From a bacterium (GTDB lineage: Bacteria; Zhuqueibacterota; Zhuqueibacteria; Residuimicrobiales; Krinioviventaceae), in NCBI GenBank assembly GCA_963693055.1, contig OY843751.1, positions 3,330,359 to 3,394,358 on the forward strand: a stretch of 64,000 nucleotides of DNA, in the 5' to 3' direction. The notes under the pieces are model-generated. The model searched no databases, was not told where the DNA came from, and was given only the letters and a program-made list of their open reading frames with translations. Shown one piece after another: positions 6,883-61,111 of this stretch (positions are counted from its first letter, which is position 1; each line of letters opens with the position of its first letter). The position numbers and the translations under genes were made by a program.

Positions 6883-8844
6883 CTATTCCTCATTCAACGT
6901 TGCTAGCAATTCTTCAATTTCCATCTGAGCGGTCTCCCACTGTTCCATGTTTTGCTGAAGATTGTTTTTCGCGTCTGCATATTCTTTTTGCAGCTGAGCA
7001 GCTTTGGGACCATCTTTGTAGGTTTCAGGATCAGCAAGTAATGTCTCTATTTCACCAATTCGTGTTTCAAGTATCTCAATCTGAGCTTCACAATCATCCA
7101 CTATTTTTTGGAATTGGTTCCGTTTTTTACTGATTGCCTGCCGCGCTTCCGCTTCTTTGCGTTTATCTTCTTTGGATTTCTTGACTATACTGGTTTTAGA
7201 TGTTGATTCAGTAGGACTAGAAGATTTGGAATCAGTGATTTTGGTTTCATCCTGCTGGCGTCTATGCAAATAATCAGAGTAATTGCCCTCATATACCCGC
7301 AAATGTTTTTCCTTGATCTCAATAACGCGAGTCACGAGTTTATCCAGGAAATAGCGATCATGTGAGATGAGAATAACTGTACCATCATAATATTTTAACG
7401 CATGTTCAAGCGCTTCTTTCGATGCCATGTCCAGATGGTTGGTAGGTTCATCCATAATCAAAAAGTTGACAGGCGACATTAATATCTTGGCAAGAGAAAC
7501 CCGTGCTTTTTCTCCACCCGACAATACCCCAACCTTTTTGAACACATCATCACCCGTGAACTGAAAAACGCCCAATACATCTCTAACCTGTGGTAACAGA
7601 CTGTCAGCAACAGAAGAACAAACCTCATCATAGACCGTTGCATTTAAATCCAACGTATCCACCTGATGCTGGGCATAGTAACCAATATCGGTCTTTTGGC
7701 CAACAGTAATTTCACCTTGCTGTTGTTCAAGCTGCCCTACTACCAGACGAGTGAGGGTTGTTTTACCGGCACCATTAACGCCTACCAATGCCAGTTTTTC
7801 ACCACGGTACAGATCCATATCCACATTTTCAAGGACCCAGTCCTTTTCGTATTTGAATGACATGTTTTTTACATGCAGTACTTCTTTATAACTTTGCTGA
7901 TGTACGGAAAGTTTAAAATTCAAGCGTCTTGGCGGTGGCGGCAGTACAACATCTTCAAGCTTATTTAGCTGTTTCACACGACTTTGTACCTGTTTGGCTT
8001 TACTGGCTTTGTAGCGAAAGCGATCAATAAACTCTTCCTGCTGTTGTCGTTTAGCTTTGACTTCTTCCTGTCGTTTCATCAACAGTTCAAGATTTTCTTC
8101 TTTTCTACGCTCATAATCGTGGTAATTACCGGGATAATGGGTCAGTTTGCCTCTGTCCAGTTCATAAATTTCATTACACAAACGTTCAATAAAATAACGG
8201 TCATGCGACACAATAACCATACTACCGCTGAAACTGAGCAAGTATTGTTCAAGCCATTCGAGTGAAGGTAAATCCAGATGGTTGGTAGGTTCATCGAGAA
8301 GCAGCAGATCCGGTTTCTGGATGAGCAAACGCGCCAAATAAACACGCATACGCCAACCACCACTAAAATCAGAGATAGGACGGTGAAAATCAGATACAGC
8401 GAATCCCAAGCCGGACAAAATCGCTTTAATACTGCTTTCCAGTTTGTATCCGTCAAGCACTTCATAACGGCTTTCCAGAGTGCCCAACTTTTTCAGCAGG
8501 GCATCGTGATCGCCTTCTCCATCTTCAAGCTGATGACGGATCTTGTAAATCTGTTCTTCCAGATCCAATAATTCTCCCTGACCTTCTAACGCAACCTCTA
8601 GAATACTGCCACGCTCAATACTGATCTCTTCCTGAGGAAGAAATCCTATAACATAATCTTTGGGTTTTATCTGCTCCATAGAATCAGGTTGCAGGTCACC
8701 ATTTACCACGCGTAACAAGGTGGTTTTCCCCGCACCGTTGGGGCCAATTAACGCGGAACGTCTACCAGGAGTTATGGTCCAGTTTACATCGTTAAATAAA
8801 TATCTTTCACCAATAGCATAATTTAATCGAGATATTTGCAGCAT
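6883..8844 (-). CDS. ABC-F family ATPase (tandem ABC domains, no transmembrane domain, C-terminal coiled-coil); translation/ribosome-associated, Uup/YheS/EttA-like
   Basis: There are two Walker A motifs (GPNGAGKTT, GVNGAGKTT), two ABC signatures (LSGGWRMRV, LSGGEKARV) and two Walker B motifs (LLLDEPTNHLD, LIMDEPTNHLD). A charged linker separates the domains and the C-terminal tail is rich in K and E. Confidence 0.93.
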   Translation of the reverse strand: MLQISRLNYAIGERYLFNDVNWTITPGRRSALIGPNGAGKTTLLRVVNGDLQPDSMEQIKPKDYVIGFLPQEEISIERGSILEVALEGQGELLDLEEQIYKIRHQLEDGEGDHDALLKKLGTLESRYEVLDGYKLESSIKAILSGLGFAVSDFHRPISDFSGGWRMRVYLARLLIQKPDLLLLDEPTNHLDLPSLEWLEQYLLSFSGSMVIVSHDRYFIERLCNEIYELDRGKLTHYPGNYHDYERRKEENLELLMKRQEEVKAKRQQQEEFIDRFRYKASKAKQVQSRVKQLNKLEDVVLPPPPRRLNFKLSVHQQSYKEVLHVKNMSFKYEKDWVLENVDMDLYRGEKLALVGVNGAGKTTLTRLVVGQLEQQQGEITVGQKTDIGYYAQHQVDTLDLNATVYDEVCSSVADSLLPQVRDVLGVFQFTGDDVFKKVGVLSGGEKARVSLAKILMSPVNFLIMDEPTNHLDMASKEALEHALKYYDGTVILISHDRYFLDKLVTRVIEIKEKHLRVYEGNYSDYLHRRQQDETKITDSKSSSPTESTSKTSIVKKSKEDKRKEAEARQAISKKRNQFQKIVDDCEAQIEILETRIGEIETLLADPETYKDGPKAAQLQKEYADAKNNLQQNMEQWETAQMEIEELLATLNEE

Positions 8845-34879: not shown

Positions 34880-36832
34880 TTATTGGGTAAGGTTAAATGT
34901 ATTTACAAGATCACTCATCTGCTTTGCTTGCTGCGACAACTCTTTGGCGGAACTTGCAGACTCTTCCGCATTTGCAGCGTTTTGTTGAGTGATTCCGTTC
35001 ATCTGTTCTACGGCACTATTGATCTGTTCCAGTCCATCATTTTGTTGCTCAGAAGCGGCCGCAATCTCTGCCATAATTTCACTAAACTTTACTACTTTTT
35101 CGGTTATCTCTTGTAGGTTTTCAAGCACCTGCTCATTCAGAGATACACCTTCACTGGTATTACGAATTGAATCTTCAATCAATTGGGATGTTTCCCTTGC
35201 AGATTCGGCGCTGCGCTGCGCAAGGTTTCTCACCTCTTCCGCAACAACTGCAAATCCTTTACCTGCTTCACCGGCACGTGCTGCCTCAACCGCTGCATTC
35301 AATGCAAGCAAATTGGTTTGAAATGCAAGTTCATCAATCGTCTTGACCACTTTGGAAGATTCATCGGATGATGTTTTTATTTTGCCTATAGCTTCAGAAA
35401 GCTGCTCCATGCTTTTCATACCTTTTTCAGTGCTAGTCTTGGCAGAGTGTGTTAAATTGTTAGCAACCTGGGCATTACTGCTGTTCTGCTTGATCATTGA
35501 AAGCATTTCCTGCAAGCTACTTGCAATCTCTTCCAGAGAGCTGGCCTGTTCGGTTGCGCCCTGAGCGGTGGACAAGCTGCTGTCATCTATCTGTGCGGAT
35601 GCCGAAGCAACCTGTGATGCTCCTCTGGCAACATCCAGCATGGCTTTATCGAGATTTTCAACAGCATCATTCAATGAATTTTTAATCATTGCATGATCAC
35701 CACGATACTCCCCATTCATTCGGGCATGCAAATGACGGTCAGCCACTTTGGCAAGCACAGCCGAAGCTTCATTGATAGGTGTTAGCACTGAATCCAGTGT
35801 ATTGTTTACACCTTCTATAATGGATTTAAAACTACCATTATGAAATGAGCTTTCTATACGATAAGACAGTTCTCCATTTTGAGCAGATTGAGCGAGTTGG
35901 TTAATATCATTGACCATCAATTCAATACTGGATTTCATGGTCTTCATTGAAAGACCCAGGGTATCCTGATCGGATGCCAGGTTTATATCATAACTCAGAT
36001 CACCATTCGATATTTTTTCGGCCATCTTTGCTTTATCTTGTAATGCAATATTCAAAGTTTTAAAGGCATTTGCCAATTTACCTACTTCATCTTTTTGGTC
36101 AATATGTATTTCATTGTCCAGATTTCCTTTGCCAATTTCCTGTGCAATATTTGTAATGAGCTTTAAAGGTTTGGCAACACCTTGCCCTATTACAATAATC
36201 AACACAACGCCACTAAGAAAGCCAAACAAAATAACAAAAATCAACCCAAGAGATTTTGCTTTATAATCTTTTGTTGATACATTATGAGCATCAGAAGCTT
36301 TTTGTAATAAAATTTCCGTAATTACATTTAAATGTTCTCTGGCTGTATTAAATTTATCATTGGCCTCTGAGAGTGAGAGCTGTATTGCATTTTCTTTACT
36401 CACCTCATCACCGTTTTGGCAGAGATCAATTACACGCTGAGAAACCTGTTGCCATTCTTTAAAATCACTCTCAAATTGAGGGATAATTTCATGTTCACGA
36501 TCTGAAGTAGCCAGCTTGGTATAATTTGTCCAACGTTCATAGGTCTGATCAACATTTTCCAGATAATCTGCTACAAATTGTTTAAATACTTCTGTACCAC
36601 TCGTTTCAAAAAATAGAGAGCGTTCAGCAACCAATGCTTGCTGCATATCACGGTCTGCTTCAATCAAATAGTCCATACCGGGCATGCTGATTGAAAAGAT
36701 TTCATCTAATGTTTTATCAATTTTTGACATGCTGCTGTATCCTACCAGTCCTACAATAACCAGCAGCAAAATCATGAGAGAAAATCCTATAGTTAGTTTA
36801 ATTCCAATTCCAAGATTATTTACAATTTTCAT
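34880..36832 (-). CDS. Methyl-accepting chemotaxis protein (TM1, periplasmic sensor domain, TM2, HAMP, MCP signalling domain)
   Basis: N-terminal TM segment [22 protein letters not shown] and second TM segment [20 protein letters not shown]. The highly conserved signalling hairpin reads ...[16 protein letters not shown]...[39 protein letters not shown]. Confidence 0.92.
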
Positions 36833-43602: not shown

Positions 43603-43641
43603 AAAAAAAACGCCATGCAATTCAATTGTATGGCGTTTTTT
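43603..43641. terminator. Bidirectional terminator separating the oxidoreductase gene from the low-GC island
   Basis: A8-CGCCAT-(loop)-ATGGCG-T6, followed by T4. Confidence 0.65.
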
Positions 43642-43724
43642 GTTTTGTAATGTACGCAAAAAATTAGTAAATAAAAAAATTATAAAACATTGAAATTTTT
43701 CATATAATTCATTTGGCAATAGTA

Positions 43725-44501
43725 TTAAAAATTAATTACATTTTTCGATTGTATTTTTTTTGAATACTCAATAGAAGAAATTATATCATTTTCAGTTAAA
43801 ACTTTATCATACTTTTCATATTTCCTTTTCATATCATTTAACCTAATTAATGCATTTCCAAATTTATCATTTAAAAAACCAATTCGACTTATAATATAAT
43901 TATTACAATTTTCATCAAAATTAACATTATAAACTTTTCTTATATAAAAAGCTTTTAAAATGTTTGCTTCAATAGTAGGATTAAGTGATTTATACTTATC
44001 ATTTTTCTGAATAATATCAAGTTGATTATATTTTAAAAAATTTAAAAAATTTTTTATATTCATCTTTTTTGAATGTATATTGATAACTAATGAATCATAA
44101 TTATAAAAACAGCCATTTGCTATACTTTCTAAAATATTATCATCATTTTTAACTACAAGTTTATTATTAAAAGCCCAATTATTTTCAATACACCACGTAT
44201 CAATTTCATAATTATCAAGTAAAATTTTTATACCATTCATCCTATTTATTTTATAGTTCAAATTTGTATTTGTTAATAATTCTTTTACTCGTGTTGTAGG
44301 TAAACCAATTATTATATCTAGATCTCTTGTTTCCTTATCAAGTATTATATCACGTAAAAAACCCCCTACAACATAGGCTGTACCATATGCGAATATTTCA
44401 TAAAAGAAATCTTTAACTTTTAAATTTCTATTTAATAATGTTGAAAATTTTATTATAAATTTTTTCCGTATGCTGTTGTAATCAATTTCATCATAATGCA
44501 T
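43725..44501 (-). CDS. Minimal pol-beta superfamily nucleotidyltransferase with a CCA-adding/poly(A)-polymerase head motif only
   Basis: YVVGGFLRDIILDKETRDLDIIIG matches the class II CCA/PAP head (GGxVRDxLLx5DxD). No RRD motif or body/anticodon domain is recognisable. Its ATG at 44499-44501 directly abuts the TAA of the upstream dGTPase gene. GC is about 22%. Confidence 0.6.
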   Translation of the reverse strand: MHYDEIDYNSIRKKFIIKFSTLLNRNLKVKDFFYEIFAYGTAYVVGGFLRDIILDKETRDLDIIIGLPTTRVKELLTNTNLNYKINRMNGIKILLDNYEIDTWCIENNWAFNNKLVVKNDDNILESIANGCFYNYDSLVINIHSKKMNIKNFLNFLKYNQLDIIQKNDKYKSLNPTIEANILKAFYIRKVYNVNFDENCNNYIISRIGFLNDKFGNALIRLNDMKRKYEKYDKVLTENDIISSIEYSKKIQSKNVINF

Positions 44502-45872
44502 TTATATTCTTATACCTTTCAATTTTTGAAATAATGAAATAGCATATGAATCAGTCATACCTACTATAAAATCTAAAACCAATTGAATCTTATTATATTT
44601 TATGTTATTGTAATAATTTTTACTATAACATTCATAGATATGTCTATAGCTAGAAGATATGCATTTATACAGCCTACTTTCTTTATTATTATTCTTCGTA
44701 TCAAAATCATCAGATAAAATCCCTGCTACAAAAATATCAAGAAGACCACAAATAGCCTCAGAACCTGCTAACTCAGTTTGCATTATTTTTTTATTATCAA
44801 ACACAATATTTTGTAATTTTTTAAATGATTTTCTTATATCAGATGCTTCTGAAACATTTATAATTTCATCGTTCAAACTACCGCTCATGATGCTTTCATA
44901 ATTTTGTTTAAATGCTTGAATTACGTGACCAATCATTTTTGATTGAGCTTTCACACGAAATTTTTGAATTACTAAATTAATTTTATCATTACCATCAACT
45001 TTAATTTTTTTATATAATTCTTCTAGTTCATCATTTAACTCAATATTTGTTTGTAAATTTTCTTTAAATATATCAATAATATCATTATAACATATTATTC
45101 CAAGTTTTACACCATCTTCAATATCAGCAGCACAATAAGCAATATCATCAGCGGCTTCTAATAAATAAACAACAGGATGCCTTTGATTATTTAATTTAAG
45201 CTTATCATTAATTCTTTTATATGCCTCTTGCTCTGAAGCAAAATATCCAAATTTTTTCTTTCGAATTTCAATAGAATTTTTCCCATTATTACCTTCAATT
45301 GAACTAGAGGGATATTTTATTATAGATGCTAAAGATGGAAAAGTTAAATTAAAACTAAACTCATCACCAAAATAATGCAATTTTCTCAAAATTCTAAAAG
45401 TTTGGACATTACCATCAAAATTTTTAAAATCTTCTTTTTCTTGATTATTAAGATCATTGAAAATGTCAGTTTCGAATTTTTTTATAAAAAATTGTTGAAT
45501 TGCTGTTTCACCAAAATGTCCAAATGGTGGATTACCTAAATCATGCACTAAGCCTGATAATTTTAGTAGAGAGCTTATATGCCCCCTAAATATTTCATCT
45601 AAATATTTATTATCAATTAAAAACTTTTCTATACTTAAACCAATCGAACTCGCAATATAAGAGACTTCTAACGAATGAGTCAGTCGAGTTCTTATAAAAT
45701 CACTTTTCTCTAATGGAAAAACTTGTGTCTTATCCTGCAAACGCCTGATTGAAGAACTGGAAATCAATCTTCCATAATCATTTTCAAATGGATTACGACC
45801 ATCATATTCCGATTTTTGTGATTTTTTACGGAATGTTTCTGGTGTTAAAAGCTCATCCCATCTTTTCTTCAT
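44502..45872 (-). CDS. dGTP triphosphohydrolase (Dgt) family HD-domain dNTPase
   Basis: All Dgt hallmark motifs are present: RTRLTHSLEVSYIASSIG, HDLGNPPFGH, AADDIAYCAADIEDG and FIVGMTDSYAISLF. An AAAGAG RBS precedes it and GC is about 24%. Confidence 0.85.
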   Translation of the reverse strand: MKKRWDELLTPETFRKKSQKSEYDGRNPFENDYGRLISSSSIRRLQDKTQVFPLEKSDFIRTRLTHSLEVSYIASSIGLSIEKFLIDNKYLDEIFRGHISSLLKLSGLVHDLGNPPFGHFGETAIQQFFIKKFETDIFNDLNNQEKEDFKNFDGNVQTFRILRKLHYFGDEFSFNLTFPSLASIIKYPSSSIEGNNGKNSIEIRKKKFGYFASEQEAYKRINDKLKLNNQRHPVVYLLEAADDIAYCAADIEDGVKLGIICYNDIIDIFKENLQTNIELNDELEELYKKIKVDGNDKINLVIQKFRVKAQSKMIGHVIQAFKQNYESIMSGSLNDEIINVSEASDIRKSFKKLQNIVFDNKKIMQTELAGSEAICGLLDIFVAGILSDDFDTKNNNKESRLYKCISSSYRHIYECYSKNYYNNIKYNKIQLVLDFIVGMTDSYAISLFQKLKGIRI

Positions 45873-46056
45873 AGTATAAACTCTTTCTAATCATTTATGA
45901 TTATAATTTTTTTAGATGTAATTTAGTAAATATAATAACTATTTATTAATGAAAACAATATATAATTATGATGTCTAATATACAAAAATTAGAAATAAGA
46001 TTATGCTGTCAATTTATAACATTTGATGTATTCATTATATTAATAATTATTATAAG

Positions 46057-46119
46057 CCCCTTTATCCCCTTTATCCCCTTTATCCCCTTTATCCCCTTTA
46101 TCCCCTTTATCCCCTTTAT
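46057..46119. repeat. Perfect microsatellite (CCCCTTTAT)x7
   Basis: Seven uninterrupted 9-bp units lie in the AT-rich spacer about 185 bp upstream of the dGTPase ATG. On the island coding strand this reads (ATAAAGGGG)7, that is G4 tracts spaced by 5 nt. Confidence 0.95.
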
Positions 46120-46349
46120 AATTTGAATAATTAATAGATTTCAGACAAAATATGCAAGAAATAATTGGTTTATTATCCATTTTCAAAAAATAATTTTATA
46201 AAGAAAATTTTCAAATTAATATTTACTAAATATATCAGTGTGAGAATTGTTTAAAAATTACCAACCCGATAAACGATGAGTAAAATGTCCTTGCAACAAT
46301 ATGCAATTTATTGCCCGGCACTTGATAAGTTACCGGGCAAGTATCACTA

Positions 46350-48515
46350 TTACCTTATCACATGATAATATTTTGCCATCCAATAAGGCAGCAGGTATTC
46401 ATCACCGGCGAGACGAGACATTCCCCCACCACCGGAATCAATACTAAAGGCGTTTGAATTGTGGCGGTTCATGGGACGTTCATTGGGTGATAATACCTCA
46501 GAAATTCTTTGACGTCGGAAATTTTTAGGTAAATATTCCAGGTCTTTACGATTCGAATTTTTGATGGTATAGCGGTTCATATCAATAGGATACTCTTTTA
46601 AATGCCAGATAACAGAATCAAAATCCATTACGCCAACTGATGCGTATGGCAATACATTCCACAATGCACTTTTTTCGGGACGTTCAAGTTCCCAGTGATC
46701 AATAATAGCTTCTTTATATACATCCCGTAATTCCTGGGTAAATGCATATTTATAAGATACATAATAGGTTAAAAACGCCATTTCATCATCAGAGTGGTTC
46801 CAGGAATCGCCCATGGTAAATGCATGGTCACGCCATCTATAAACAAAGGTGGTATCTTCTTTAATCTCTTTCATACTGATCTTCATGTTCTCAAGATAGC
46901 CGTAATCATCCATCATGCGGTAGGCTTCAGTCTTGAAAATCTCTTTACCCGTCAAAGCATAGGCAAGCTGCAGCCCGGCAATGAGATGCGTACTGTTTAA
47001 GCGCCTGTCAAAAATATGACGGGGATACGCGTTAACAAACTCGGGATTCCAACGTCCCCACAAGGTGGGTTCTCCATCAATATCCACAAAATAATAATCA
47101 TTTTCAATAATATGAGTCATTATCGCATCGATAAAGTTTGCAATGCGTTCATGTTCTTCCGGGGTTTTGGCAACAAATTCGTCCATGACGGTGGTAACAT
47201 AGAGATAAGCAATATACTCATCGGTACTGGTGTGTCCCTTCCATTCCCAATCCGCTTCAGGAGACTGGCGCCAGCGATCAATGTCAGACATTTTGAATCC
47301 CTTACGTTCAAACGTACGGGACGGAAATCCTTTTAATTGATTGATTGAAAGCAGTCTCTCAAATGTTTCAAAAGATTCCCAGGCATAACGGCGTGCACTT
47401 TCGTCACCGGTTACCGCGTATTTGTAACACAGACTGCCAAGGTAAAAAGTGGTCCACAAGCCATCGTTGTCTGTATCAACAGTAACAGCGGTTGTTAAAT
47501 CACCGGCTTTTTTATAATGCAAAGGACGTGTAAAGCCATAGCTGATGTGATATTGCCTTAAATCTCTTTCAATTTCAGCAGTCTTTTCTGCAAGGGTCAT
47601 ATTGCGATAGTGGATTTTGTTCAAACCGGTTGGCGATAAAACATATACATCTCCCCTGCTGTCTGTAGCCAGATCCACAACTGTATCATTATCCAGCCAG
47701 CGTTTGGATGCGTAATAACGATATTTTTCACCATTGGGAGTAAATGCACCGGCATCAGAACCAAACCACAATTCGCAGCCTTTTGTCATCATGGCTGTAA
47801 TTGCAGGTACGGGTAATTTGGCATCAAGTTCTTTTGTGACAGATCCGGTTTCGCTATTAATTTTTAAATATCCGTTTGTTGTACCCAAAGCAATTTCATC
47901 TTTAACAAAAGCCGCAGCAGTCAAGTTTTTACCTGAATAAACCGTTTCCCATTTTTTATCATCAAGACGGTATAGATTGCTCTTTGTTAACAGATAAAAT
48001 TGAGTTTTGTGCACATACAGGTTTAAACACTCGCCTTTAGGAACATCAACATCACTGATTTTTATCTTGTTATGATACAGGGCAGCATTCTTTTCTCCCA
48101 CCAGCAAAATCTCATCATTGCTGTTCATAGCAATATGATCATAGCTGCCTTTATCAAAATGCGCGTATATGGCTCCGGCATGGGCATTGGTCAGGAACTG
48201 ATCGTTATAGAGATAATAGAGATATCCAGTACCCTCTTGCACCGTAACATCCACAGGCTGCAAATCAGATAAAGATCTGTAAAGTAAATCTTTTGCTAAT
48301 ACATCCTCAAATACTCGCCACAACCCATGATTTGTCTGCACATAAACAATGTCATTATAATCAACAACCACTTTGAGTAATTGCAAATCAGATGGGGCAT
48401 TCTGTGTCTGGTATTTTACCGATACCGGAAAATCATAAGGCTTGTCCACATATTGCGCAAAAGCAAAACTGGATAATAAAATACCGGTCAAAAGAATGAG
48501 TACTATTTTTTTCAT
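46350..48515 (-). CDS. Secreted two-domain protein (N-terminal beta-rich region, C-terminal helical region); putative glycan-active enzyme, function unknown
   Basis: Signal peptide MKKIVLILLTGILLSSFAFAQ, then a 721-aa ORF with no confidently recognised catalytic motif. Confidence 0.6.
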   Translation of the reverse strand: MKKIVLILLTGILLSSFAFAQYVDKPYDFPVSVKYQTQNAPSDLQLLKVVVDYNDIVYVQTNHGLWRVFEDVLAKDLLYRSLSDLQPVDVTVQEGTGYLYYLYNDQFLTNAHAGAIYAHFDKGSYDHIAMNSNDEILLVGEKNAALYHNKIKISDVDVPKGECLNLYVHKTQFYLLTKSNLYRLDDKKWETVYSGKNLTAAAFVKDEIALGTTNGYLKINSETGSVTKELDAKLPVPAITAMMTKGCELWFGSDAGAFTPNGEKYRYYASKRWLDNDTVVDLATDSRGDVYVLSPTGLNKIHYRNMTLAEKTAEIERDLRQYHISYGFTRPLHYKKAGDLTTAVTVDTDNDGLWTTFYLGSLCYKYAVTGDESARRYAWESFETFERLLSINQLKGFPSRTFERKGFKMSDIDRWRQSPEADWEWKGHTSTDEYIAYLYVTTVMDEFVAKTPEEHERIANFIDAIMTHIIENDYYFVDIDGEPTLWGRWNPEFVNAYPRHIFDRRLNSTHLIAGLQLAYALTGKEIFKTEAYRMMDDYGYLENMKISMKEIKEDTTFVYRWRDHAFTMGDSWNHSDDEMAFLTYYVSYKYAFTQELRDVYKEAIIDHWELERPEKSALWNVLPYASVGVMDFDSVIWHLKEYPIDMNRYTIKNSNRKDLEYLPKNFRRQRISEVLSPNERPMNRHNSNAFSIDSGGGGMSRLAGDEYLLPYWMAKYYHVIR

Positions 48516-58986: not shown

Positions 58987-59191
58987 GGACTCCTTTTAAT
59001 AAAAAGTGATAATAAAACTGGGGTGGCTGTCAATTAACACAATGTATTGTTCGTTATTATCTAAATAAAAAACTAATAATTGACAATAAAAAGTACAAAA
59101 TTGTAAACTCGAAAAAAAAGAATATTGTTATGATCAAAATTCAAACCACAATTTAATTCACATGTAATGCCAGGAAATTAGAATAAGGGAA

Positions 59192-59800
59192 TTAATCATT
59201 CCAATCTTTTACTGGGCGAATATTATCTTGCAACAACTGGTTTGTAAATTCACCAATACAATTTAAAATTTGATTCGTTTTTGGTATACTAAAAATAAAC
59301 TCTAAATTCTTAATTAAAACGATCCCATTTTTATTAGAACGAAATTGATATTTTTTTAATAATGCCTTGAGTGATGAAATCTCTTTATCCCGAAGGTCTA
59401 CAGGAATGGCAATTGTAATATATTTTTTGGAATTATTATAGATAGGAAAAATAGAAATAATAAATCCGTTATGAGGACCTAGATACTGTCGTTCCTGTTG
59501 TTGATAACCATATAAAGTTAATGCAGTCATTTTAGGATTATTGAATAACCTTTTCTCTCTTTTAGGTCTGAAAATTTTTTCGTCTAAAAGCAAAATCGAT
59601 CCTATTAAAATGGATAGAACAAGTGCAAAAAGGAATGCAAAACAAAACAGAAAATAATCAAAATTATAATGTGATTTAATTATTATTACAATAGTAAACA
59701 TAATCCATAAAACAATAAAATTCAGTAAATAGAATTGTTTTATATTTTTCCATACTATTTTTAATAACGTTTCATTAGCTGAAAAAGTAGTAATTTTCAA
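59192..59800 (-). CDS. Low-GC orphan membrane protein (2 TM helices + soluble domain), function unknown
   Basis: The 202-aa product has TM helices LLNFIVLWIMFTIVIII and FLFCFAFLFALVLSILIGSILLL. GC is about 30% against about 45% in the flanks, and no family is recognised. Confidence 0.5.
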   Translation of the reverse strand: MKITTFSANETLLKIVWKNIKQFYLLNFIVLWIMFTIVIIIKSHYNFDYFLFCFAFLFALVLSILIGSILLLDEKIFRPKREKRLFNNPKMTALTLYGYQQQERQYLGPHNGFIISIFPIYNNSKKYITIAIPVDLRDKEISSLKALLKKYQFRSNKNGIVLIKNLEFIFSIPKTNQILNCIGEFTNQLLQDNIRPVKDWND

Positions 59801-59968
59801 CTTTAATCTCCACTATTTTGAATTTACATTTGAACATTGAAATCATCAAGTTTTTCTCAACCTCATTCCCAGGCAGAGCCAGGTAACGAGAACTAGATAA
59901 TTTCTATTAACAACCTTTATATCAGTATTAATCTGCGTTTATCTGTGGTTCAATAATTAAAAATTTAA

Positions 59969-61111
59969 TTATGTATTCGGTAAAACCTCTATCACTGAAA
60001 CCGGACAAGCAATCACGCACGCACCACACCCAACACATGCATCCTTTATAATCTCGGGGCTGGCAGAAAAATCTGTATTCGATTTTTTAATCACCACTGC
60101 CTGATAAGAACAGAAATTTTTACACTGGTTACATTCTTTTAATTGTGTCAGCAAGCAATCTTTAACATGGATAACAGCAATGCCCATGACATAATTCTTC
60201 TTTTCATCACCGGTAATTCTTTTCAACGTTCCTGAAGGACACACATCTCCACAGGCTGTACATTCCGGTAGACAATAGCCATTTTTTAAGGAAACATGCG
60301 GCGTTAAAATGCCTGCCAAATCAGAGAGATCAAACGAGGATTGTATTATATCCGTAGGACACGCTTTACCACAATTACCGCAACGTAGGCAACTTGCCAG
60401 CAGTTCTGCTTCCGGTAATGCAGCAGGCGGACGGATAACAGTCCTGCGAGTATTTGAAAAGACAGACCGGATTGAAAATCCTGCTGCGAACCCGGTTATC
60501 GCTCCCAGGGCCAATCTTCTCGAGTGGTTAAAACGGGACTGTTGAGACCGGAAAACCAATCGTTTCAGACGGGTTAGCAAGTCCTGTAATCCTCCAAGCG
60601 GACAAACCTTGCCGCACCAGACAAAGGGTAAAACAAAATTCAAAAGCAGCAGCAATACGAGTCCGGCAGCTTTGAGGATAATAAGAAAAACCGGTTGGCT
60701 TTTAAAAGCACTGAAAAATGTATAAAAAATAGATATGGGGTCCAATAATCCCAAAATGGTTGTCCCTGTCAAGGCTGCAACTAATCCCGCAACGGCTAGC
60801 GCTATTCCCAATGCGGGAATGTGCTTGACAATCCCAGAACGTCTTCCCCGTTTTGATACCGCATCACAAAGCGCACCGGTGGGACACATCCATTTACAAT
60901 ACCAGCGATGACGCATAAAAGATGCAATCAATACAAGTATGGCAATTACCTGCAGCCCCCCAAAAGTAAATTGACCAATGACCATCAACAGCATTAGATA
61001 GGGACTGGTCCATAAATAGAAACCGCTGAACCCTTTCCAGGATATAGGTAATGCAAACAAAACTGCAATACCAAATAAAATCCAACGAACATTAAAAGAC
61101 TTGAACCTCAT
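59969..61111 (-). CDS. Polytopic membrane polyferredoxin (NapH/MauN/NosR/RnfB-like, multiple 4Fe-4S motifs)
   Basis: CKWMCPTGAL and CGKVCPLGGL precede the clusters CLRCGNCGKACP, CTACGDVCP and CVGCGACVIACP. Its ATG overlaps the stop of the upstream FAD oxidoreductase (ATGA). Confidence 0.75.
   Translation of the reverse strand: MRFKSFNVRWILFGIAVLFALPISWKGFSGFYLWTSPYLMLLMVIGQFTFGGLQVIAILVLIASFMRHRWYCKWMCPTGALCDAVSKRGRRSGIVKHIPALGIALAVAGLVAALTGTTILGLLDPISIFYTFFSAFKSQPVFLIILKAAGLVLLLLLNFVLPFVWCGKVCPLGGLQDLLTRLKRLVFRSQQSRFNHSRRLALGAITGFAAGFSIRSVFSNTRRTVIRPPAALPEAELLASCLRCGNCGKACPTDIIQSSFDLSDLAGILTPHVSLKNGYCLPECTACGDVCPSGTLKRITGDEKKNYVMGIAVIHVKDCLLTQLKECNQCKNFCSYQAVVIKKSNTDFSASPEIIKDACVGCGACVIACPVSVIEVLPNT

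Follow-up and report, generated by a model that had tools for sequence, protein, structure and literature searches.

A two-gene island of low guanine-plus-cytosine (GC) content lies in the stretch of contig OY843751.1 analyzed here (assembly GCA_963693055.1, positions 3,330,359 to 3,394,358; 64,000 nucleotides, hereafter the window), and it is very probably a Bacteroidota member of the Clover family of anti-phage systems, the Bacteroidota affiliation being taken from its relatives. Clover pairs a dGTP triphosphohydrolase (dGTPase), CloA, with a Pol-beta nucleotidyltransferase, CloB (Yamaguchi et al., bioRxiv 2025, published 2026; PMC12265719), and the work is cited as published in a 2026 review (PMC13434031). 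The CloA/CloB pairing had been flagged bioinformatically in 2023 by Nicastro et al. (per PMC12265719). A preliminary description of this DNA had proposed a nucleotide-targeting, defence-type module whose pairing was undescribed. The first part agrees with our results, since both proteins are homologous to their Clover counterparts; for the same reason the pairing cannot be called undescribed (1e-74 to structures 9p8s-v for the CloA-like protein and a BLASTP E value of 3e-13 to Salmonella enterica CloB, or SeCloB). The core of the island comprises three features:

44502..45872, minus strand: cloA-like gene, 456 aa; HD-domain dGTPase of the Dgt/SAMHD1 family, the presumed effector (open reading frame and profile matches)
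43725..44501, minus strand: cloB-like gene, 258 aa; Pol-beta nucleotidyltransferase with a class II head and neck of the type found in CCA-adding enzymes and poly(A) polymerases (CCA/PAP), presumed source of the CloA-restraining nucleotide
44499..44504, minus strand: TAAATG stop-start junction (translational coupling), read from the sequence

The order of the genes, cloA then cloB, and their adjacent, co-directional arrangement are those of Clover. At the junction (...ATA TAA ATG CAT...), the stop codon abuts the start codon with no gap. The low-GC island, its abutting minus-strand reading frames, their coordinates and lengths, and the TAAATG junction were all reproduced from the preliminary description.

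The conserved residues establish window gene 1 as a CloA-type dGTPase that is predicted to be catalytically intact. Every Dgt hallmark previously quoted for this protein is present (RTRLTHSLEV at residue 61, HDLGNPPFGH at 110, AADDIAY at 240, DIEDG at 250, and GMTDSYA at 438), and the profiles agree, with 326 bits for TIGR01353 dGTP_triPase, 427 bits for PRK01096, and an E value of 2e-72 for the PADLOC dGTPase model. The best solved structures were the four octameric entries 9p8s-v (Salmonella CloA, 1e-74); E. coli Dgt (2e-54) and the single-gene SpdGTPase 9p8w (3e-29) matched more weakly. In a phmmer search of PDB, the Salmonella protein (SeCloA) scored 255 bits, P. syringae 2pgs 192, E. coli Dgt 188, the L. 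blandensis dGTPase 184, and SpdGTPase 105, which makes the characterized CloA a closer match to the window protein than either housekeeping Dgt or the single-gene defence enzymes. We took the 9p8s-v entries to be SeCloA because the numbering obtained from their alignment matches nearly every residue named in PMC12265719; the lone mismatch is residue 377, a Glu in the structure chain that the text of that paper gives as Q377.

We then compared residues in an alignment of 32 Bacteroidota CloA homologues, SeCloA, and 119 proteobacterial matches. All six metal-binding and catalytic residues are present in the window protein (H66, H110, D111, D242, H119, and E122, aligned to SeCloA H69, H117, D118, D242, H126, and E129), and all six are invariant in 32/32 Bacteroidota homologues and throughout the proteobacterial alignment. 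Position Q127 is F throughout the Bacteroidota clade; we read no substrate change into this replacement because E. coli Dgt presumably also carries F there. With NCBIfam NF002205 (the PRK01096 equivalog, cutoff 439), the window CloA scored 427, SeCloA 342, and the CloA of a Bacillus plasmid (L040, 3965-5371) 458. Because this plasmid-borne, Clover-type CloA passes the cutoff, PRK01096 does not separate housekeeping proteins from Clover proteins. The window protein reached 318 bits with NF003429, the model for E. coli-type housekeeping Dgt (cutoff 405), and fell well below the models for single-gene anti-phage dGTPases (NF041026, 202.7 bits against a cutoff of 400; NF003701, 167.9 against 383).

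Window gene 2 is, from its aligned residues, a CloB-type nucleotidyltransferase with a DxD...D active site that appears intact. For comparison, we recovered the Salmonella locus (L041), in which the gene at 7370-8203, downstream of CloA, encodes 277 aa with D71 and D73; we identify it as SeCloB because these residues match those mutated in PMC12265719. BLASTP aligned the window protein (258 aa) to SeCloB over 216 aa at 22% identity, hhalign of its family against SeCloB returned a probability of 97.4% (E 1.3e-11), and a CloB-like protein from a Bacillus thuringiensis (Bt) plasmid matched at 29% identity (E 4e-18). The motifs GGFLRDIIL (at residue 46) and DLD (60-62) are present, and catalytic residues D60, D62, and D101 align with SeCloB D71, D73, and D113. 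Across SeCloB and the Phaeobacter, Bt, and Bacteroidota CloBs, 17 alignment columns do not vary (16 if the start Met is left out). They include G46, G47, R50, D51, D60, D62, N86, G90, D101, W103, W109, A110, F111, and D136, so that the shared core reads GG..RD, DxD, a third Asp, and W-x5-WAF. The segment aligned to motif D of CCA enzymes is NPT(I/T)EAN in Bacteroidota, within a segment of their own, YKxLNPT(I/T)EANILRAF, and TPDVNGA in SeCloB. In class II CCA enzymes, motif D serves as the nucleotide-selecting template.

Profile searches, which had been suggested as a check, confirmed the Dgt-family dGTPase and matched the nucleotidyltransferase to the Pfam PolyA_pol head alone (2e-7, residues 42-102 only), a match that is equally weak for SeCloB itself. 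The AF2 model of the window protein has a pLDDT of 91.7, and its top Foldseek matches were class II A-adding and CCA-adding enzymes (E 7e-10, TMq 0.55-0.64, 218-272 aligned columns). According to the model, the protein is a head plus a neck, with the tRNA-binding body and tail absent. The earlier label "head-only" was thus too narrow, as the alignment extends to the neck, while the missing body and tail stand. Such an architecture would suit a maker of a free short nucleotide rather than an enzyme that extends tRNA. CCA and PcnB models gave only 13-21 bits against cutoffs of 290-700 (TIGR01942, 21 against 306; NF009814, 19 against 290; NF008634, 18 against 702), in line with the earlier view that this is not a housekeeping CCA/PAP enzyme. 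A PADLOC match to SduA (E 0.004, 22 residues) was rejected as noise.

To place the module among genomes, we scanned one genome per species, about 185,000 species, with two peptide patterns and found 38 loci encoding the nucleotidyltransferase family, a count that is a lower bound. Family members are about 256 aa long and the named ones are from Bacteroidota; the loci are mostly Bacteroidota, three carrying other labels. A CloA homologue with 52-68% identity to that of the window lies directly upstream on the same strand in 37/38 loci, and the 38th is truncated by the end of its contig. The spacing in most related loci is 0, -1, or -4 nt. From these arrangements, the genes are coupled and invariably move as a unit. 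The neighbourhood analysis that had been proposed for this pair finds the nucleotidyltransferase recurring next to a CloA homologue and sometimes beside defence genes, namely, AbiEii, PDC-M30, PDC-M41, a type II restriction-modification system, and a DRT reverse transcriptase. A Bacteroidota nucleotidyltransferase profile matched 1085 cluster representatives (E<=1e-3) in a library of 1.84 billion proteins. Because SeCloB, Phaeobacter CloB, and Bt CloB each recover 129-137 of the top 149 of these representatives, we regard the Bacteroidota nucleotidyltransferases and the wider CloB group as one continuous family.

The surroundings of the module differ from locus to locus. Module GC lies below flank GC in nearly all loci, and a comparison of 181 flanking proteins gave just 6 small clusters common to any two loci, none of which includes the window flanks. 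The commonest Pfam family among the 120 nearest neighbours occurs in no more than 4 of them. As judged from composition and context, the pair is a small mobile cassette that moves horizontally into unrelated settings, as had been claimed for the window island. The foreign GC, the differing flanks, and the small common neighbourhood also rule out a core-genome housekeeping pair. Mobility, a patchy distribution, and an occasional place in defence islands are shared with Clover.

Bacteroidota-type modules were also found on L001, L005, and L036, whose metagenome-assembled genome (MAG) labels are Cloacimonadota, Erythrobacter sanguineus, and Alphaproteobacteria; these may represent cross-phylum transfer or mis-binning. 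Several loci are decayed, mostly through CloA. CloA is broken by a frameshift, a stop, or a 5' truncation beside an intact CloB in L014 (4629-5994), L025 (4014-5438), and L034 (5298-5975), and remnants of both genes remain in L038 (5722-6378). A stop interrupts CloB in L036 (1587-2159, CloA intact) and in L001 (158-877), both on MAG contigs. Toxin logic predicts that CloA is lost before CloB; three loci with a broken CloA stand against two with a stopped CloB, numbers too low and too reliant on MAG quality to decide the matter.

The Salmonella Clover operon (L041, 1-11245) lies between IS3-type transposases and a phage-type integrase. Beside it are QueC, Nuc_deoxyrib_tr/PfkB, Ogg-HhH, and D12-methyltransferase-like genes, a cluster with a possible role in modifying nucleotides or DNA. 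On the conjugative Phaeobacter plasmid pP14_b (L039, 1908-6195), a Clover-type pair whose CloA is 51% identical to SeCloA directly follows a TcmP and DUF5131 (Gp37/Gp68) pair. DUF5131 also occurs twice among the neighbours of Bacteroidota modules.

Published work on Clover in Salmonella enterica SA20044414, E. coli H5, and Xanthomonas provides a mechanism with which to compare the window pair (PMC12265719). CloA by itself is inactive in vitro and is specifically activated by dTTP, which rises during infection, while the CloB product p3diT (pppdTpdT) binds next to the dTTP site, in an allosteric pocket where two CloA subunits of a dimer meet, and inhibits the enzyme. CloA is strongly toxic without active CloB, protection exceeds 10,000-fold against T5-like phages, and a distantly related Xanthomonas CloB also yields p3diT (PMC12265719). 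Extended to the window from the Salmonella and E. coli systems, CloB would constitutively make a short 5'-triphosphorylated deoxynucleotide (p3diT in Salmonella), which would sit in this interface pocket and hold the otherwise toxic dGTPase off. Phage-raised dTTP would bind the adjacent activating pocket and outcompete the inhibitor, and activated CloA would hydrolyse dGTP and starve phage DNA replication. The defence activity, toxicity, oligomeric state, and product assigned to the window pair are those of its homologues. Among the roles previously suggested for the nucleotidyltransferase, a toxin/antitoxin-like partner matches the characterized homologue. A signal generator for the dGTPase matches it in logic, except that the signal inhibits rather than activates. 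A tRNA 3'-end modifier found no support.

The two allosteric pockets of CloA bear directly on how far this mechanism applies. In the dTTP pocket of SeCloA, the thymine edge is read by D61 and T449, and R47 and Y452 stack (PMC12265719). Among the Bacteroidota proteins, R47, D61, K256, and T449 are invariant and Y452 and S418 are each present in 29/32; the window protein keeps 6/9 pocket positions, namely, this set of six, which includes the thymine-specific residues. Because the thymine-stacking and edge-reading residues are conserved, dTTP sensing is likely retained in the window CloA.

The inhibitor pocket is kept at 5/10 positions in the window (R29, R38, N181, Q311, and R314), all five of which are invariant in Bacteroidota, where T25 is variable. 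In SeCloA, R29, R38, N181, and Q311, and not R314, bind the triphosphate and first thymidine (PMC12265719), so the half of the pocket for these groups is shared with Clover. On the other side, the second thymidine is recognized in SeCloA by D37 and N75 at its Watson-Crick edge and by F41 at its sugar, and R34 contacts both the triphosphate and the phosphodiester (PMC12265719). R34, D37, and F41 are each found in 119/119 sequences of the proteobacterial set, in which N75 varies (N in 90, T in 23, A in 4, and S in 2), and at 34, 37, and 41 the Bacillus protein shows only conservative changes (K, E, and Y).

Several observations weigh against a straightforward assignment to Clover. Identity to characterized proteins is low, about 36-40% for CloA and just 22% between the window CloB and SeCloB. 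The pair stands alone among housekeeping genes, with no defence island, both in the window and in Labilibaculum (L042). Three activator-pocket positions are changed in the window (Q172H, N420S, and A444F), where the clade has Y/H, S, and F. Finally, at the second-nucleotide side of the p3diT pocket, R34N, D37G, F41S, and N75Y are clade-wide in Bacteroidota (N in 29/32 at position 34, G in 31/32 at 37, S in 32/32 at 41, and Y in 31/32 at 75). These residues suggest that an inhibitor pocket exists in Bacteroidota CloA with a different second-nucleotide half. The exact inhibitor is uncertain because part of the pocket is remodelled: there may be a different second nucleotide, or the same ligand may be read another way, and the Bacteroidota signal may differ from p3diT.

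That the module has Clover architecture and logic but another signal, with the Bacteroidota CloB making a nucleotide with, for example, a different second base, sugar, or length and CloA reading it through a remodelled pocket, is a live possibility, if short of probable. R34, D37, F41, and N75 are replaced across the clade while the first-thymidine and triphosphate residues (Q311, R29, R38, and N181) are unchanged, and the CloB segment at motif D differs as well. However, the distant Xanthomonas CloB also produces p3diT, so at least the proteobacteria keep one signal (PMC12265719), N75 already varies in proteobacteria, and the same ligand can be held by a rebuilt pocket. The more specific proposal, that Bacteroidota form a distinct clade in which the CloB nucleotide is changed at its second position and read by a co-evolved pocket of N31, G34, S38, and Y72 (window numbering), seems to us somewhat doubtful. 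A self-stabilizing addiction module, in which a toxic dGTPase and a nucleotidyltransferase that makes its antidote persist without useful phage defence in the host, is improbable. It would fit the toxicity of CloA without active CloB, the lone insertions in housekeeping DNA in the window and L042, and the decay at L014, L025, L034, and L038. Nevertheless, homologous systems protect strongly against phages, known defence genes adjoin several of the Bacteroidota loci, and the conserved activator-pocket residues would be needless for addiction alone.

We give very little credence to a housekeeping pair composed of the canonical dgt of the lineage and a truncated cca or pcnB, although the window CloA scores just below the PRK01096 equivalog cutoff and its partner matches the CCA/PAP head profile alone. 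The same equivalog is passed by a plasmid Clover-type CloA, the GC is foreign (z of -4.2 and -3.6), and the module occurs at only 38 loci, as a lower bound, with no synteny between them. The partner falls far short of the CCA and PcnB model cutoffs, its body and tail are absent, and the nearest characterized relatives of both proteins are the defence proteins CloA and CloB. It is likewise highly unlikely that the nucleotidyltransferase tails the 3' ends of tRNA or other RNA alongside dNTP depletion, without a free signal. Its fold is nearest to A-adding and CCA-adding enzymes, but the parts that hold tRNA are absent, and the characterized homologue makes a dinucleotide that was found bound in CloA. 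Homology to CloA and CloB, together with the conserved thymine-reading residues, leads us to favour a Bacteroidota Clover module.

The closest system compared was the Clover-like pair of the B. thuringiensis plasmid pBT62A (L040), with 40% identity in CloA (E 3e-113) and 29% in CloB. The CloB motif NPQIELNLLRAL of this plasmid resembles NPTIEANILKAF, and the two CloAs score highest on NCBIfam PRK01096. In contrast to the Bacteroidota clade, the Bacillus CloA keeps a conservative p3diT pocket (K34, E37, Y41, and K314), and the Bacillus CloB is shorter (230 aa). Single-gene anti-phage dGTPases, reportedly described by Tal et al. in 2022, are another point of comparison. The Shewanella SpdGTPase (9p8w) shares with the window CloA the HD fold, dGTP depletion, and the PADLOC dGTPase model, but it is far more distant (PDB 3e-29; NF041026, 203 bits against 400) and has no nucleotidyltransferase partner. 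SpdGTPase is constitutively active in vitro and is a hexamer rather than an octamer (PMC12265719). Class II tRNA nucleotidyltransferases (CCA-adding, A-adding, and PcnB) share the head (GG-x-RD and DxD) and neck fold with the window CloB, which differs in lacking the body and tail platform for tRNA and in how the segment of the nucleotide-selecting motif reads. Hailong (oligo-dA) and Panoptes/MISS (2'3'-c-di-AMP) resemble Clover in that a constitutive nucleotide blocks the effector until infection, whereas their proteins, effectors, and signals are unrelated.

What is new here is modest: a Bacteroidota clade of Clover and the clade-wide, non-conservative remodelling of the second-nucleotide half of its inhibitor pocket. 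The hosts named in the text of the original paper are proteobacteria, Bacillus, Clostridia, and Myxococcia, and Bacteroidota are not named in that text (PMC12265719). Our results would extend Clover, with its activating and inhibiting nucleotides, to this further phylum. Bacteroidota are major bacteria of the gut, the sea, and soil. If the signal does differ, Clover would join the defence families with diversified second messengers, its "off" signals having diversified as the "on" signals of CBASS and Thoeris have. Clover loci are prone to being missed or misfiled because annotation pipelines label the genes "dGTPase" and "hypothetical/nucleotidyltransferase", and PADLOC would call a single-gene dGTPase. 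The NF002205 scores likewise imply that some Clover effectors are annotated as ordinary dGTP triphosphohydrolases.

Two further features border the genes:

43605..43641, strand not assigned: hairpin, plausibly a bidirectional intrinsic terminator common to the module and the convergent Gfo/Idh/MocA oxidoreductase gene
45873..46349, minus strand: AT-rich upstream spacer (GC 0.24), presumed promoter and leader, containing a 9-mer repeat

The hairpin has a 17-pair stem (5 G-C) with A6 on its 5' side and T6 on its 3' side, and it was also scored as an inverted repeat (I7, 94% complementary). In the spacer, a (CCCCTTTAT)x7 array at 46057-46119 is 100% perfect and precedes the cloA start by 185-247 nt; on the coding strand, the repeat reads GGGGATAAA. 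The terminator-like hairpin and the perfect 9-mer microsatellite of the preliminary description were thus both recovered. The array could be a slipped-strand promoter switch or merely local junk, and because none of the other 37 modules is preceded by this repeat, we do not regard it as a component of the system. An exact Bacteroidota -7 motif (TAnnTTTG) was not found in the spacer, where sigma-70-like matches were no commoner than in shuffled sequence.

GC content is 0.265 in the cloA-like gene, 0.202 in the cloB-like gene, 0.239 in the upstream spacer, and 0.231 in the downstream spacer, compared with 0.446 and 0.402 in the flanking genes. In 1-kb bins, no part of the window is lower than the two bins of the island, which lie 4.2 and 3.6 standard deviations below the mean of the remainder (mean 0.392, SD 0.038). 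The earlier figure of about 42% for the flanks holds roughly (the window mean is 39%), and the island itself spans 20-27%. Around the island, we found no convincing direct repeats (AT-rich matches of 74% identity only) and no tRNA genes, and a Pfam scan of the immediate neighbours detected no integrase or transposase. The flanking genes are ordinary, encoding a Gfo/Idh/MocA oxidoreductase, an unannotated 721-aa protein, MnmA, and TauE (Pfam). The 721-aa reading frame (46350-48515, minus strand) borders the island on its upstream side and matched no Pfam family at E<=0.01.

Elsewhere in the window, a second sharp drop in GC occurs in the kilobase 59001-60000 (0.262 against about 0.39), which may be another small foreign insertion. 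It contains a 202-aa reading frame (59192-59800, minus strand) with no significant Pfam match and a weak, sub-threshold resemblance to MgtE. The window also encodes a complete methyl-accepting chemotaxis protein (34880-36832, minus strand) with 4HB_MCP, HAMP, and MCPsignal domains; the relatives of the module are mostly Bacteroidota.

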